Position numbers and translations under genes: made by a program | Notes under the pieces: model-generated | What the model saw: the letters and a program-made list of their open reading frames with translations, nothing else | The model's database searches: none | Told to the model about the DNA's origin: nothing | Assembly (NCBI GenBank): GCA_963786955.1 | Contig: CAWBAT010000005.1 | Location: 256,001-320,000 of the forward strand | Direction: 5' to 3' | Length of the DNA stretch: 64,000 nt | Origin: an uncultured Acidimicrobiia bacterium | GTDB lineage: Bacteria > Acidobacteriota > Terriglobia > Versatilivoradales > Versatilivoraceae | In this document: in pieces, positions 1,414 through 63,652 of the stretch | How the letters are laid out: every line of letters begins with the position of its first letter | Position numbering within the stretch: position 1 is the first letter of the stretch

Positions 1414-2040
1414 TTAGCGACTCTCTTTGCCCCCACTTGTATGCTTATCGTGAATACAGCCCGGGAATTCGGCTAAGGAAACATTGCCCTGATATTCCAA
1501 ATCCTGATGGATGCCAACTTCCGAAAGGTAGTAGCCATCTATTGTGGACTGTTTCAGGGCCACGAAAAATCGTTCTTCCAGTGTCTCAGGGTGTTCTTCT
1601 CTTTGACCGATTTTGGTTAGCACGTCAAGCTGTTGTTCGGCATTGCACAGGAGAAATTCTTTACCACTCGCACGTTTGGACAGCTCGTCCAGGGCCGCCA
1701 GTCCCTCAGTCCAGAGCTGCTGGGTCGCTTCCTCTGAAACGGCAACGATTTCATCGATGAATTGATCAACGCCCGCCGCCTTTGCGCCCGGAGAATGTTG
1801 GTCTCGAGGAATGATCATTTCGGCGAGTGCTGCAATGGTGTCCAGCTGGTGTTTATTGAAAATTGTAGCCGATGGTGTTTTCAGAACTGAGGCCAGCTTG
1901 GCCGGACTATGGAGATGGGATACGCAAGCGGGAGTGGCGCCCAGAAGAACGCGACCCTGCATCGCATAATAAGTTGACCCCGCGATGAAGGACAGCATGC
2001 TCCGGCGGGAGATCTTGTTCCCTTTTCGATGGTCCTGCAC
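1414..2040 (-). CDS. Gluconate 2-dehydrogenase subunit 3 family protein (Tat-exported partner of the GMC oxidoreductase)
   Basis: SRRSML twin-arginine motif; IIPRDQHSPGAKAAGVDQFID; TIDGYYLSEVG; AGGAGA RBS; lies upstream of the GMC gene. Confidence 0.9.
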   Translation of the reverse strand: MQDHRKGNKISRRSMLSFIAGSTYYAMQGRVLLGATPACVSHLHSPAKLASVLKTPSATIFNKHQLDTIAALAEMIIPRDQHSPGAKAAGVDQFIDEIVAVSEEATQQLWTEGLAALDELSKRASGKEFLLCNAEQQLDVLTKIGQREEHPETLEERFFVALKQSTIDGYYLSEVGIHQDLEYQGNVSLAEFPGCIHDKHTSGGKESR

Positions 2041-2070
2041 GACCTTTGTCTCCTATAGGCGTAGTCTGAG

Positions 2071-2129
2071 GTTGTAGCCGGCCTCGCTGAGGCCGGCACC
2101 TATCCGGGGCCAGCGGCCCCGGCTACAAC
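2071..2129. repeat. REPIN-like GTAG doublet (GTAGCCGGCCTCGCTGAGGCCGGC ... CGGGGCCAGCGGCCCCGGCTAC)
   Basis: Two hairpins bounded by GTTGTAG/CTACAAC. Near-identical copy at 11117-11175; half copies at ~43111-43135 and ~49093-49115. Confidence 0.85.
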
Positions 2130-2404
2130 AATAGATTACTTCAATATAACAAAGTACATAGTCGCCTGTCGTTACCAATCAGGCGTCGTGCGCCGTGCGG
2201 CGTACTTCCACCCTCCACTTAATACCACCCACCCCTATAGCCTAAAGGCTCCCTCCCCTCCGGAGGGGAATAGAAAGGGTCATCCATGATTAGTAAGACA
2301 CCTTCTTACTGATTGGCAGGGAATGGTCAGATCGTATAAAATAAGAGAAGTACTAGTTAGGTTTTTTATCCACTAACACTGCTTCACGAGAAACTCTCCA
2401 CCGC

Positions 2405-3427
2405 ATGTATAAAGCTGGAACCCGCCTCGAAGTCATGCGCCACCTCGATCCCTTCATCGCGGAACAACTCCCCATCCTTTTGCGTGATCCTGAGCATAAC
2501 TGGCAACCCATGGATTTCAGCCCCGACCTGAGCACAGAAGAGGGTTTTGAAGAGTTGCGGAGGCTGCAGGCGGAGGCGCGGGCGATTTCAGACGATGCGA
2601 TGACGGTACTGGTGGGCGATATGATTACGGAGGAGGCACTTCCCACCTATGCCTCCTGGATCAGCACGATCGAGGGGGCCGGCGTGCAGGGCGAACCCGA
2701 AACAGCATGGGGTGCGTGGAACCGCGGATGGTGCGGTGAAGAGAACCGTCATGGCGACATTCTCAACCGCTACCTCTATCTTAGCGGCCGGGTGAATATG
2801 AAAGAGGTCGAACTGACCGTCCAGCATCTCATCAGGGACGGTGGCGACACGCAGACCGAGAACGACCCGTATAAGACCTTCATCTACACGAGCTTTCAGG
2901 AAATTGCCACGCGCATTTCACATTTAAACGTAGGCAATATTGCCCTGCAATCGGGCGCGACTCGTCTATCTAATATTTCCCGGAAGGTGGCGGGGGACGA
3001 GAACCGCCACGCTCGGGCGTACAAACTGTTCATCTCGAAGATTCTGGATGTAGACACCAGCGAAGCGGTGATTGCCTTCCAGGAAATGATGAAGAAAAAG
3101 ATTATCATGCCAGCCATGTACATGCGCGAACGCGGCAAGCAAGTGGGCGAGACCTTCAAGAAGTTTGAGATAATTGCGAACCGCTCTGGCGTCTACACGC
3201 CCTGGCATTACGTCGAGATCATTGAGAATCTCGTCGAAGACTGGGACATCCAGCACCGCACGGGCCTTACCCCCGCTGCAGAGAAGGCGCAAGAGTATCT
3301 CTGCACGCTTGCCGATCGTTACAAGAAGCTCATCGAGCGGATGAAGCAGCCCACGGAAGTGGAAGCAGTCCAGTTCAGTTGGATTTCCCCCGCCCAGATT
3401 AAGGGCACTGCCACGGTCAGCATGTGA
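2405..3427 (+). CDS. Acyl-ACP desaturase (soluble di-iron, FA_desaturase_2 family)
   Basis: GDMITEEALPTY, WCGEENRHG, YTSFQEIAT and DENRH iron-ligand motifs; WQPMDF. Confidence 0.92.
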   Translation: MYKAGTRLEVMRHLDPFIAEQLPILLRDPEHNWQPMDFSPDLSTEEGFEELRRLQAEARAISDDAMTVLVGDMITEEALPTYASWISTIEGAGVQGEPETAWGAWNRGWCGEENRHGDILNRYLYLSGRVNMKEVELTVQHLIRDGGDTQTENDPYKTFIYTSFQEIATRISHLNVGNIALQSGATRLSNISRKVAGDENRHARAYKLFISKILDVDTSEAVIAFQEMMKKKIIMPAMYMRERGKQVGETFKKFEIIANRSGVYTPWHYVEIIENLVEDWDIQHRTGLTPAAEKAQEYLCTLADRYKKLIERMKQPTEVEAVQFSWISPAQIKGTATVSM

Positions 3428-59894: not shown

Positions 59895-60857
59895 ATGACC
59901 ACCAAAGTCATCCTCAATGGCAATCGCTACCTGAAGGCCGACTTACACTGCCATTCTTATTTCAGTGGAAAGACCGCTCATGTGAAGGCCCTTGAGCCCA
60001 TGGACTGCTATTCTTCGCCGCAGGGAGTCTATAGACAGGCTAAAGCTCGTGGGATGGACCTTGTGACCATCACTGATCATGATTCCATCGACGGCTGTCT
60101 CGATTTCTTGGAAAAATTTCCAGAAAAATTGGACGAGGATTTCATTATCGGAGAGGAAGTCACTGCCCAACTTCCGGAGTTTGGATCTAAGGTTCATATC
60201 GCAGTCTATGATATTACCGAAACCCAACACCATGAGATTTCCCGTTTAAAAGCAAATTTTGATGAGTTGATCTTATTCCTTCGCTCGAATCGCATCCTCT
60301 ATGTGCTCAATCACACCTTTCACGGCTTTCCCAAACGCCAGCATGGACTCAAATTTCTGGAGAAGATGCTCGATTCGTTCGAGATTTTTGAAGGATTAAA
60401 TGGTGCCATCGGGCCCTGCCAAAACGGTGTGATTTCCCAAATGATTCAAAGATTTCCAAACAAGACGCTCGTAGCCGGCAGTGATTCCCATACTCTGGTG
60501 CGATTGGGTTCGTGCTTTACGTTAGGGCAGGGTGAGAATCGGCGAGAGTTCCTGCAAAGCCTGCGGACGGGAAGTGTTGCCATGGCAGGGGAAAGCGGCA
60601 GTTTCATCCATATCTTTGGCGATGCGATGGGAGTCTACCTGGCTTATTTCAGAGATGTGGCTTTCCGTAACCAGGTCCATCGCGAGTGGTCTATACCCAA
60701 AAAGGTCAGGAATGGGTTGGGCTGGGCAGGGTATTTGCCAGTCTTTTTCATACTTTCCCTTGCTTATGCCATTGTCTATGACCGGCTCGAAGCTCGAAAA
60801 TACCCCTACTATCGAGAACTCATGCAACAGGCGATGATTCGCCGAGGAGTGGGTTAA
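59895..60857 (+). CDS. PHP-domain metal-dependent phosphoesterase
   Basis: ADLHCHS, ITDHD, GEE, NH, GSDSH. Confidence 0.9.
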   Translation: MTTKVILNGNRYLKADLHCHSYFSGKTAHVKALEPMDCYSSPQGVYRQAKARGMDLVTITDHDSIDGCLDFLEKFPEKLDEDFIIGEEVTAQLPEFGSKVHIAVYDITETQHHEISRLKANFDELILFLRSNRILYVLNHTFHGFPKRQHGLKFLEKMLDSFEIFEGLNGAIGPCQNGVISQMIQRFPNKTLVAGSDSHTLVRLGSCFTLGQGENRREFLQSLRTGSVAMAGESGSFIHIFGDAMGVYLAYFRDVAFRNQVHREWSIPKKVRNGLGWAGYLPVFFILSLAYAIVYDRLEARKYPYYRELMQQAMIRRGVG

Positions 60858-60870
60858 ATTCAGCCTAGAA

Positions 60871-60928
60871 ACAAAAAAACCTGCCTCATCTGACCATATA
60901 ACAGAAAACTGGATGACAAGGCAGGTTT
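60871..60928 (-). terminator. Intrinsic terminator downstream of the micro-protein gene (possibly bidirectional)
   Basis: Minus strand AAACCTGCCTTGTCATCC...AGATGAGGCAGGTTTTTTTGTTT. Confidence 0.7.
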
Positions 60929-60944
60929 GAATGGTTCTGGGGTC

Positions 60945-61004
60945 TTATTTCTTTTTTGCTGCTTTCTTGGCTGGTTTCTTCGCCGCTTTCTTAGCTGTAG
61001 CCAT
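60945..61004 (-). CDS. 19-aa Lys/Ala-rich micro-protein MATAKKAAKKPAKKAAKKK (histone-H1-tail-like)
   Basis: AGGAAAGGAGG-AAAAA-ATG; repeats use varied synonymous codons; TAA followed by a terminator. Below the ORF-track size cut-off. Confidence 0.8.
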   Translation of the reverse strand: MATAKKAAKKPAKKAAKKK

Positions 61005-61130
61005 TTTTTCCTCCTTTCCTCAAAAATAAAGCAGAGAAAGTTCAAACCGTCAACCCAGGGGATTAGCACTTCAAAAGAGAGAAGAACAGGAACGAGTCAA
61101 ACGAGAGCTGGAGCATTTGAACTTGAGCAG

Positions 61131-61388
61131 TCAGGTCGCTTCTTTCTTCTTACCAGGAACTGCGGAGGATTCATCAGGCTCAACTTTTTCGGACGCAGCT
61201 GCCTTCCCCTCAGTTACCGGCTTCCCTTCCTTTGAACTTTCTTTTGCCTCCCTAAGTAACCTTTCTTCCTTCAAATAGCTTGTGATCAATTTGTTAACAA
61301 TCTTCTTGATGGAAGTCCTGTGACGAGTGGAACTCAACTTCAGTTCAATGTGATCCTCATCGTCAATCTCTACATTTATTTTTGCCAT
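61131..61388 (-). CDS. Ribbon-helix-helix (ParG/CopG-like) DNA-binding protein with charged C-terminal tail
   Basis: MAKINVEID beta-strand, followed by two helices DEDHIELKL / SIKKIVNKLITSYL. Confidence 0.7.
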   Translation of the reverse strand: MAKINVEIDDEDHIELKLSSTRHRTSIKKIVNKLITSYLKEERLLREAKESSKEGKPVTEGKAAASEKVEPDESSAVPGKKKEAT

Positions 61389-61395
61389 CAGGATA

Positions 61396-61482
61396 ATTGT
61401 ATGTTATTAGATAGCTACATATGAAAGTAGCTTAGTAATAAGATTCATACAAACTTATAATGCTACTTTTAGTATTTGTCAA
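61396..61482 (-). promoter_or_regulatory. Sigma70 promoter with palindromic operator-like repeats
   Basis: TTGACA (61482-61477), 17 bp spacer, TATAAG (61459-61454). AAAGTAGC/GCTACTTT inverted pair and a long palindrome at 61396-61452. Confidence 0.7.
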
Positions 61483-61891
61483 CAAAAATTTTAAGTTTGC
61501 TAACCTGTTTAATACATTTGTATTTTCACATCGACTCGCACGACAAAAACTTTAGTACAAAAATCTGTTTTTCCATGACACGTATTCAAGAATTTTCCTG
61601 GAGTGGAATTTGCGGCTTAAGCCGGTGGGCGACGTCCAGTTCAGGATGAAGCCCTCCTTCTCGATGCCGTCGAGGCCTAGGTCCGGCATGAAACATCAAT
61701 CAAATTTGGTGCCGGCGAAGGAATTGAAATTTCTTGAGGCGGAGAGGTGCGTCCTCATTGGACGCGAGCCTGAAGAAGCAAAAGATTTTTTAATCCAAAT
61801 CTTAATTCGTGCGATGAGTAATAGCAGTTAGGTCGCAGAGATAGAAGCGCCCAACGTAGATTTTTTGATCTAAGCTAGGTGCCGGGCAAGC

Positions 61892-62320
61892 ATGAATAAC
61901 CAGAAAATTAACATGGGTGTAGATAGGCGATCGGCTGACCGAGTCAATGACAACTCTTTGCTCGTGGTTGCAGGGAGATTGGTGGGGGGAGAAACCTTCA
62001 GTGAAATGACATCGATCCATGACGTGAGCACAGGGGGTATCTCTTTTTACTTAAACACTCTGTTGGGCGTTGGCGATCTCGTCGATTTGAGCATCTATAC
62101 GGAGAAATGGACCAGTACCGAAGCCGTCCCCCGTTACTATATCCAAGCGAGAGTGTTAAGGGTTTCACCCAATCTCCATAGTAAGAACCAATTTTTTGTC
62201 GCTGCCGAGTTCGCCAGCAACTTTGTCAACTTAAGCTGTGAGGAAGATTTCGATTCGATCGTGCGGCATTTACAACAGGCCGTCGCAAACGACGAAAACC
62301 AGAAACAGCAGTACGAATAA
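61892..62320 (+). CDS. PilZ domain protein
   Basis: RSADR (RxxxR) and DVSTGG (DxSxxG). Confidence 0.82.
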   Translation: MNNQKINMGVDRRSADRVNDNSLLVVAGRLVGGETFSEMTSIHDVSTGGISFYLNTLLGVGDLVDLSIYTEKWTSTEAVPRYYIQARVLRVSPNLHSKNQFFVAAEFASNFVNLSCEEDFDSIVRHLQQAVANDENQKQQYE

Positions 62321-62338
62321 ACGGACCCGGAGCCAGAT

Positions 62339-62680
62339 ATGTTTGAAGACAAGAGACGTCAAAAGAGGGTCTGCGTTAGTCTCCCGATTCGAGTAAAATG
62401 GTCTGACAACAAAGGCAATCGATTTGAAGAAGTAACCCGATCCATCGATGTCAGTGCCGACGGGGCACTTTTCCCCTTGAAGGTTCGCCTCACAGCGGGA
62501 ACTCTACTGGAGTTGTCATTACCCTTGCCAAGAAATTTTCAGAAGTCAGCCTACCCAAAACCAGTTTACGAAACCACCGGACTGGTGGTCCGAGTCGAAC
62601 AAACTGGCGATCCGAATAGCTACCGCATTGCTGTTCGTTTCCGGGCCGTGAATGTCAAACAGTACCGCGCCGAATCATAG
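62339..62680 (+). CDS. PilZ domain protein
   Basis: RRQKR and DVSADG; GGAG RBS. Confidence 0.88.
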   Translation: MFEDKRRQKRVCVSLPIRVKWSDNKGNRFEEVTRSIDVSADGALFPLKVRLTAGTLLELSLPLPRNFQKSAYPKPVYETTGLVVRVEQTGDPNSYRIAVRFRAVNVKQYRAES

Positions 62681-62701: not shown

Positions 62702-63652
62702 TCACTGCTTTTTTACTGCTGGCTGATATTTTTTCTCTCCGGCAGGAATCGGAACCTTCAACCAGTTCTGCAAAGGCGGGATCTGGCAGGTACTGTACTT
62801 TGTGTAAGCGCAATAGGGGTTATGGGATTGGTTAAAATCAAGGATCACCTTCCCTGCTGATGGTAAGTCAGCGTAAAGGTAGCGCCCCGCTTCGTAAGTC
62901 TGGTTCCCGTTCGTTTTATCCTTAAACATGAAGAAGAGTTTGTCTGCGTCAGGGGATTCAAGGACCGGTTCCAACTGCAAGGATTTCCCTTGCAGGCTAA
63001 ACCGAACGACACCGGGACACTCCAATTCTTCAACTTGACCGAGGACATTGGCGACCTGAATTTTCTTGGGAGGATGATACGGGGAAAACCTTCCGACGAC
63101 ACGAAAGGCAGAGTTAATTTGGAAAAATGCCAATCCATGGTAGTTCAGCAAGGCTGGATTTTTGGAATAGGAGATGCGAAGTCCCAGCCGGTCTCCACGC
63201 TTGATCATCTTCATCCGCAGTTCCCCCACGCTGAGAAGGTCAGGAACGGCGCCGGATGCATCACTCTGCAAATCCCGGGTTGTGATGCGGGAACCCCGAA
63301 ACAGAACGATGGCGCCTGGGTCCGACTCAAAATGGACCCGATCGGATTTGAGGAACAATCGTCCGACCTTGGCTGGAGCGCTTCCCGGCGGCAGAATGAT
63401 TTGATTGGAGGGCTCAGTCCCTAGAGTATTCTCCCCGGGCTTCAACCAAAAAAGACCCGCCAAAGCCAGAGGACTTTCCTCCGATCTCATCCATTGGTCT
63501 CTTTCCTTTTGGTAGCGAAAGGATTGTGGGTCGGAAGAATTTAATAGGGATTGTGTCCGTCTGGTCTCAGGCACGAAACACCCACACAAGAAGACAATTA
63601 AAATAAACCTTTCCCCGAACCCCAGCCTTAACCTTCGAAAACGATCATTCAT
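62702..63652 (-). CDS. DUF1684 domain protein
   Basis: LAGLFWL, FKDKTNGNQTYEAGRYL, DFNQSHNPYCAY..C.IP..QN.L...AGEK. Confidence 0.9.
   Translation of the reverse strand: MNDRFRRLRLGFGERFILIVFLCGCFVPETRRTQSLLNSSDPQSFRYQKERDQWMRSEESPLALAGLFWLKPGENTLGTEPSNQIILPPGSAPAKVGRLFLKSDRVHFESDPGAIVLFRGSRITTRDLQSDASGAVPDLLSVGELRMKMIKRGDRLGLRISYSKNPALLNYHGLAFFQINSAFRVVGRFSPYHPPKKIQVANVLGQVEELECPGVVRFSLQGKSLQLEPVLESPDADKLFFMFKDKTNGNQTYEAGRYLYADLPSAGKVILDFNQSHNPYCAYTKYSTCQIPPLQNWLKVPIPAGEKKYQPAVKKQ

Follow-up and report, generated by a model that had tools for sequence, protein, structure and literature searches.

A conserved ribbon-helix-helix gene paired with a lysine/alanine micro-gene in uncultured Acidobacteriota: a candidate operon for a putative nucleic acid-binding oligocation

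What is the role of an open reading frame (ORF) of only 19 codons, encoding a lysine/alanine-rich (Lys/Ala) peptide, that lies on the same strand downstream of a gene for a small ribbon-helix-helix (RHH) protein? This question is raised by a locus of contig CAWBAT010000005.1, which we analyzed within a stretch of 64,000 nucleotides (nt), referred to here as the window; all coordinates are those of the window, and the two-gene module is located on its minus strand. The DNA originates from a family of uncultured soil and sediment Acidobacteriota, labelled Terriglobia. A first-pass annotation, made from the letters alone, had proposed a compact module of an autoregulated RHH protein and a polycationic micro-protein, and a direct reading of the sequence located every feature that it had listed, all in minus-strand orientation. 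We propose, with a probability of roughly one in two, that the locus is a lineage-specific operon, in which the RHH regulator doses an oligocation that resembles a tail of histone H1 and binds nucleic acid. RHH-regulated operons and H1-like polycations are already known kinds of system. Their pairing was previously undescribed, as far as can be judged from the titles and opening parts of abstracts that our literature search returned: these mentioned neither a polycationic micro-protein encoded next to an RHH gene nor such Lys/Ala peptides in Acidobacteria.

The principal finding is the linkage of the two genes. A search of 41 related genomes yielded 17 with an RHH match. Fifteen loci carry full-length orthologues (75–96% identity) and one locus (L016) carries a 47%-identical homolog. 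The first-pass annotation had named beforehand the lack of the micro-ORF in homologs as the result that would speak against a pair; a Lys/Ala ORF was found 61–140 nt downstream, on the same strand, in all 16 loci. This holds even for L016, which has a different neighborhood with an adjacent ParB gene, and in which the RHH gene is still followed by a gene for a 63-amino-acid (aa) Lys/Ala protein. Inspection of 50 metagenome loci gave the same picture: both genes are complete in 44 of them, five end too early to be judged, and one (L093) represents a truncated paralog; all 44 assessable full loci contain the downstream Lys/Ala ORF. By sequence comparison, this recurrence of the whole arrangement exceeds chance, and the two-gene module is real. 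The gene pair and its conservation are thus firmly established, while its function is something that we infer.

The wider distribution of the module was examined using an alignment of the RHH proteins. Matches were obtained in 15 of the 30 other genomes of the window's family, covering 10 of its 11 genera (one genus scored 0 of 14 genomes, another 1 of 2). None was found in 370 genomes from 13 other families of the class, and 400 further genomes of the phylum gave only four weak matches. There is one full-length copy of the pair per genome, and the window's micro-ORF is the only one of its type in its genome. The flanking genes are also conserved, encoding proteins with PHP (12 of 15 loci), PilZ (10 of 15) and DUF1684 (8 of 15) domains. 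These comparisons indicate that the locus is chromosomal and vertically inherited, and is not a mobile module. A search of the family with a 38-aa peptide picked up 8 of 31 genomes but not the 19-mer of the window itself, and is therefore too insensitive to demonstrate that the peptide is missing from the genus without an RHH match.

The micro-ORF encodes the 19-mer MATAKKAAKKPAKKAAKKK, which contains 9 Lys and no Arg, and has a net charge of +9. A comparison of 16 distinct DNA versions of this 19-codon gene showed it to be a conserved coding gene, since over 120 pairs they show 737 nucleotide differences and no amino acid difference. The Shine-Dalgarno sequence (SD) and ATG of the micro-ORF are conserved in 15 of 15 loci. 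We also considered whether the real product is a hydrophobic, type I toxin-like membrane peptide encoded by the opposite strand (60931-61029, +; MVLGSYFFFAAFLAGFF...), with the Lys/Ala frame as its mirror image. The opposite frame is open in all 15 loci, and as its wobble positions coincide with those of the sense frame, most substitutions are silent in both. It nevertheless displays 30 amino acid differences among the 16 versions, against none in the sense frame; neither a start codon nor an N-terminus nor an SD is conserved in it, and its start would lie inside the terminator stem. Moreover, the promoter, SD, ATG, stop codon and U-run all serve the minus strand. We therefore assign this possibility a very slight probability. 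Because of the absence of residue changes, the invariant SD and ATG, and the polarity of the terminator, the minus-strand Lys/Ala frame is, on sequence grounds, the gene. The mirror ORF (32 aa, hydrophobic, rich in Phe, Ala and Leu) is a by-product of the Lys/Ala codons that could be mis-called as a membrane micro-protein.

Among the relatives, the peptide comprises 19, 36–39, 43, 48 or 63 aa, and varies by repeat units even inside one genus. The long forms (36–43 aa) all contain exactly 18 Lys and the 19-mers 9 Lys, with a Lys content of 47–49%; Arg occurs in none of them and the peptide has no aromatic residues. Such micro-ORFs are missed by gene callers. A collection of 15 billion proteins contained none of four exact peptides (37, 38, 43 and 63 aa), and no Pfam, NCBIfam, PADLOC or PHROG family reached its threshold. 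The sub-threshold matches were compositional: PF07382 (Hc2; 17.1 versus 40 bits), NF038053 (14.7 versus 80) and NF038052 (11 versus 135). An Atlas search with the peptide returned just unnamed clusters of 32–38 aa, none of the 863 candidates in a search for homologs of the 43-aa peptide obtained a score, and an Rfam search over 60800-61900 gave no family at E ≤ 1. Taken with the invariance of the 19-mer and the occurrence of the locus in metatranscriptome assemblies (see below), the missing database entries point to a systematic blind spot of gene calling.

The first protein of the module belongs, according to profile matches, to the RHH superfamily (Arc/MetJ/CopG/ParG), in agreement with its initial identification. 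This is indicated by (i) a Pfam ParG match over residues 3–42 (27.9 bits, gathering cut-off 21.4), (ii) a match to PDB 1p94 (ParG; E 1.6e-7), in which residues 3–42 are aligned to chain positions 36–75, and (iii) a match to PHROG 3180, an Arc-like repressor (E 2.9e-6). Residues 3–42 constitute the RHH core, the helix continues to about residue 53, and residues 54–85 are disordered. An AlphaFold2 model of the monomer (12-row alignment) is confident at residues 1–50, with a predicted local distance difference test score below 50 at residues 54–85. It contains two strands (residues 4–8 and 14–18) and one helix (24–53), i.e. strand-strand-helix and not strand-helix-helix; Foldseek produced no matches to it at E ≤ 0.001, and VIA gave a best Z of 4.3, with none ≥ 5. 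RHH domains fold only as intertwined dimers, and the modelled monomer is a poor test of this fold, neither supporting it nor speaking clearly against it.

In common with the autorepressors ParG (of TP228), Arc and CopG, the protein has profile homology over the 40-residue RHH core, and its gene is the first of a putative operon, behind a promoter and a leader with short repeated boxes. In the present case, however, DNA binding and autoregulation are predicted, the downstream partner is a polycationic micro-protein, and the RHH core continues into a helical extension, which is conserved, and ends in a C-terminal tail of 30 disordered residues. Some public annotation would make the protein a ParG-type partition protein (one source labels a homolog "plasmid partition protein ParG"), as the Pfam and PDB matches might suggest. 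ParG carries a flexible N-terminal tail of about 30 residues before its RHH domain; this tail is missing here, the RHH core beginning at residue 3. In addition, no ParF/ParA gene is adjacent (the neighbors encode PilZ and PHP proteins), and the locus is chromosomal, syntenic and single-copy. A partition function thus has a negligible probability, and on sequence criteria the protein is not a ParG orthologue.

The properties of the RHH protein also bear on the proposal, put forward in the first-pass annotation, of a toxin-antitoxin-like pair. In a domesticated version of such a pair, an antitoxin-derived RHH protein would restrain, by repression or direct binding, a growth-arresting, nucleoid-condensing peptide. 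The layout resembles that of VapBC-type operons encoding RHH and PIN-domain proteins: the gene order is the same, an N-terminal RHH domain is joined to a disordered C-terminal tail, and autoregulation is probable. There is also a weak NCBIfam VapB match (E 0.031). The best matches outside the family, among the 400 genomes of the phylum, point the same way: two of the four weak ones were examined (L095, E 4.3e-8, and L097), and in both the RHH gene directly precedes a PIN-domain gene. Most of the defining features nevertheless fail. The genes are 105–140 nt apart and the peptide has its own SD, instead of gene overlap or translational coupling; the partner belongs to no known toxin fold or family; and the pair lacks mobility and multiplicity, being single-copy, strongly syntenic and vertically inherited over 10 genera. 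The RHH tail, with a net charge of +1, cannot neutralize the +9 peptide by charge. The toxin-antitoxin-like proposal fails at the spacing of the genes, at the family of the partner and at the distribution of the pair, and we consider even its domesticated form quite unlikely. A complex prediction with two RHH copies and the 38-aa peptide of a relative, run without controls, gave a score of 0.00 (mark 0.32), which speaks neither for nor against an interaction. The kinship appears to be an evolutionary echo: an antitoxin-type RHH protein was likely recruited to control a non-toxin partner. The closest relatives that the RHH protein has outside its own family are thus encoded in RHH-PIN pairs of other families of Acidobacteriota (L095:1501-2158 and L097:1501-2195).

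We next consider the DNA through which the RHH protein might regulate its own gene. The features of the locus are compiled in Table 1. The near-consensus promoter noted earlier was upheld by comparison of the 15 orthologous loci: the -35 hexamer and the flanking upstream TTTTTG are invariant in all of them, and the -10 hexamer is TATAAG, TATAAA or TATATA. A consensus promoter scanner did not list TTGACA-17-TATAAG, as it requires a T at the final -10 position. Transcription is predicted to start near 61447.

Table 1. Features of the two-gene module, listed in its 5′ to 3′ order (fold z-scores in the table are relative to 200 shuffles each)
Feature	Coordinates	Strand	Basis
Upstream conserved blocks: CTAAAGTT (61555-61548), TCGATG (61534-61529) and TACAAATGTA box (61522-61513)	61513..61555	-	Conserved in most of 15 orthologous upstream regions
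Promoter: A/T-rich UP-like tract AAAATTTTTG, -35 TTGACA (61482-61477), 17-nt spacer, -10 TATAAG (61459-61454)	61454..61492	-	Read from sequence
Imperfect palindrome, 57 nt, in the leader, beginning at the predicted start	61396..61452	-	Fold -15.5 kcal/mol, z -4.9, 0/200 shuffles as good
RHH gene, 85 aa, without SD	61131..61388	-	ORF and profile matches
Pyrimidine-rich spacer, 126 nt, without terminator, with conserved block GAACTTTCTCTGC (61043-61031)	61005..61130	-	Sequence comparison
SD AAGGAGG (61016-61010) and 19-codon Lys/Ala ORF (ATG 61004 to TAA 60945)	60945..61016	-	Encodes MATAKKAAKKPAKKAAKKK
Intrinsic terminator: 14-bp G+C-rich stem, then U7	about 60873..60928	-	-29 kcal/mol, z -5.0, 0/200 shuffles as good

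The first-pass annotation had drawn attention to GTAGC/GCTAC repeats over the promoter and leader, and to the palindrome. Three copies of the repeat are indeed present, and AAAAGTAGCA sits within the 17-nt promoter spacer; as an operator, however, the motif is confined to the window's genus (GTAGC in 3 of 9 genera, z 2.7). Likewise, the palindrome exists and its fold is significant, but the full dyad is restricted to the same genus, g1, in which L001 carries it and L002 and L003 have a weaker form. It could be either a DNA operator or a 5′ RNA hairpin. The leader is otherwise conserved in register with the promoter, and other genera keep AATGTAATTATAAAG-type boxes at the same register. An unbiased 5-mer count, using one locus per genus (9 genera) and excluding the promoter core, revealed as the top-ranked words ACAAA (21 observed, 6.4 expected from shuffles), TACAA (17 and 5.3), ATGTA (14 and 3.7) and AATGT (15 and 4.5), with z values of 5.0–6.5, inflated by shared descent, and a presence in 7–9 of the 9 genera. 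These 5-mers assemble into TACAAATGTA, which is found at the upstream site given in Table 1, with variants at the start site and inside the leader. As the RHH β-strand (KINVEI) is invariant in the 15 orthologues, and the GTAGC repeats and palindrome are genus-bound, a TACAAATGTA-type box is the more likely family-wide operator, and the upstream blocks are candidate regulator-binding sites. Short boxes around an RHH promoter and leader are reminiscent of parH, the site of ParG, which is reported to consist of short, degenerate boxes in series, separated by AT-rich spacers (PMC3130281).

Are the two genes transcribed together? The spacer between them is no more structured than expected by chance (z 0.2; an equally good fold in 108 of 200 shuffles), and the terminator follows the micro-ORF; its stems vary between genera, yet stay complementary, with T-runs after them. 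Part of the stretch is present in 20 of the 24 sequencing runs listed, 19 of which are recorded as RNA, from 17 studies of sediment and freshwater samples. We aligned contigs from four runs of four studies. In two studies, contigs bridge the genes, each covering the micro-ORF, the spacer and part of the RHH gene (X3 record 12, 60939-61180; X4 record 16, 60939-61224), and further contigs span 61121-61336 and 61250-61418, the leader being reached at 61414-61418. There is no contig cover at 61422-61620 in any of the four runs, nor at 60850-60927 in three of them, which gives a weak hint on the transcript ends. This cover fits a single transcript from the predicted start to the terminator, and the RHH gene and micro-ORF would thus be co-transcribed, although neither the strand nor the ends nor the existence of one continuous molecule can be read from such contigs, and DNA may contaminate RNA libraries.

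A different arrangement would be two separately transcribed genes, in which a conserved block of the spacer (61043-61031) forms part of a dedicated promoter or translational element of the micro-ORF, and the RHH protein mainly controls other genes, e.g. the divergent PilZ pair. This block, of the form GAACTTTCT(T/C)TGC and placed about 35 nt before the micro-ORF start, is the sole strongly conserved part of an otherwise drifting spacer: its sequence is close to constant across all 15 genome loci, and 41 of 42 scripted metagenome loci have a match to it. Conserved blocks also occur in the 400 nt that the RHH gene shares with the divergent PilZ genes. On the other hand, a reading of the sequence found no properly spaced sigma-70-type hexamer pair that fits the block, contigs of RNA libraries pass without a break from the interior of the RHH gene to the micro-ORF, and the linkage persists in the different neighborhood of L016. 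A sigma-54 or extracytoplasmic function (ECF) sigma factor promoter was set aside on spacing and base identity: the GG-to-GC spacing is one base short of the sigma-54 consensus, and most loci have GA, not GG. Separate transcription therefore appears unlikely. Nor do we claim a switch that sequesters the SD. The block pairs with the SD in the minimum free energy fold of 14 of 15 leaders, but this pairing is no better than in shuffled pyrimidine-rich leaders (in 2 of 15 loci were ≤1 of 100 shuffles as low in accessibility), and the fold of the window's leader is unremarkable (z -1.14). The block may act in translation, serve as a site for a protein or be a second promoter.

The composition of the peptide bears on its possible activity. 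It shares with Hc2/HctB (PF07382), the Burkholderia H1-like proteins (NF038053) and Pseudomonas AlgP a Lys/Ala/Pro repeat composition without Arg, and, like Hc2, it belongs to a family that is length-variable by repeat units; Hc2 is reported to vary from 165 to 237 aa by their gain or loss (PMC2848022). It differs from the H1-like proteins in being three to ten times shorter (19–63 aa), in scoring far under the family cut-offs, in the invariance of the exact 19-mer across many lineages, in its constant pairing with an RHH gene, and in being missed by gene callers. The target of the peptide may, alternatively, be RNA, ribosomes or polyphosphate, making it a lineage-specific micro-protein of the ribosome, a chaperone of RNA, a former of condensates or an AlgP-like granule protein, with the RHH protein serving as its transcriptional regulator only. 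This would be in line with the strength of its translation signals and the extreme constancy of its sequence, traits that recall ribosomal micro-proteins, and the H1-like AlgP is reported to organize polyphosphate granules (PMC9239181). The lack of Arg and aromatic residues, and a length that is halved or tripled among relatives, fit charge-driven coating better than a fixed ribosomal site. Moreover, neither query gave a match in a well-sampled genus of the same family (0 of 14 genomes, the peptide query being insensitive). We regard this explanation as improbable.

In the proposed operon, a strong housekeeping-type promoter would drive one transcript for both genes. The RHH protein is probably scarce because its gene has no SD (none precedes the start codon in any of the 15 loci), and the micro-protein (19 aa here, 36–63 aa in relatives) is probably made in large amounts behind a perfect SD. 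The latter would be an encoded oligocation, comparable to a histone H1 tail and to proteins of the Hc2/AlgP type, whose most likely action is a non-specific, charge-driven binding of DNA, and perhaps of RNA or polyphosphate. An RHH dimer most likely binds the short, repeated TACAAATGTA-like boxes around its own promoter and leader, and repression of the shared promoter probably sets the dose of the polycation. Co-transcription, autoregulation, unequal translation and binding of the peptide to nucleic acid are steps that we infer from the anatomy, conservation and homologies described above.

Several observations weigh against this reading. The modelled RHH monomer is not strand-helix-helix and found no structural match, and the RHH tail offers no charge complement to the peptide. 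The GTAGC repeats and the full dyad are not kept outside the window's genus, the 5-mer statistics are affected by common ancestry, and the RNA-library contigs have the limits mentioned. If the conserved spacer block were a second promoter for the micro-ORF, the idea of dose-coupling would be loosened. Finally, a truncated RHH paralog (in L093 and L018) has no downstream Lys/Ala ORF.

A broader interpretation, which we find possible but doubtful, is that of a minimal two-part chromatin module: a sequence-specific RHH protein would mark or nucleate sites and control supply, and an encoded oligolysine of fixed charge (9 or 18 Lys) would spread on nucleic acid. The locus would then be one case of an overlooked class, present in several phyla, consisting of a small DNA-binding protein and an unannotated polycation micro-gene. 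If the operon acts as we propose, there are bacterial genes dedicated to free oligolysine peptides, complete with a regulator of their own, and these peptides would form a new, very small class among nucleoid-associated or nucleic acid-coating proteins. The strict coupling to an RHH gene provides an experimental handle, as the operon is small and its two products are easy to synthesize or purify.

With regard to the surroundings of the module, two PilZ-domain genes in tandem (61892-62680, +; 62702-63652, -) lie upstream, divergent from the RHH promoter, and are followed by a DUF1684 gene, an arrangement kept in most relatives; a PHP-domain gene is located downstream in convergent orientation. 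In the intergenic region of approximately 400 nt common to the PilZ and RHH genes, the blocks CTAAAGTT and TCGATG could serve either promoter. In L016, the most divergent relative (positions 1501-3152), a convergent ParB/Spo0J-like gene replaces the PHP gene beside the pair. Two larger ORFs of the window's genome, with 142 and 892 codons, end in Lys/Ala-rich tails (G000, contig C8, + strand, from about 34731; contig C6, - strand, reverse-complement offset about 1001774) and may encode tailed proteins of the kind that the micro-protein resembles. The truncated RHH-like paralog (L093:687-1436 and L018:1327-1500) comprises about 41–52 residues, 71–75% identical to the core, and is placed directly upstream of a NarL/LuxR-type response regulator gene, with which it is in frame in L093; it may represent a fusion or a gene remnant.

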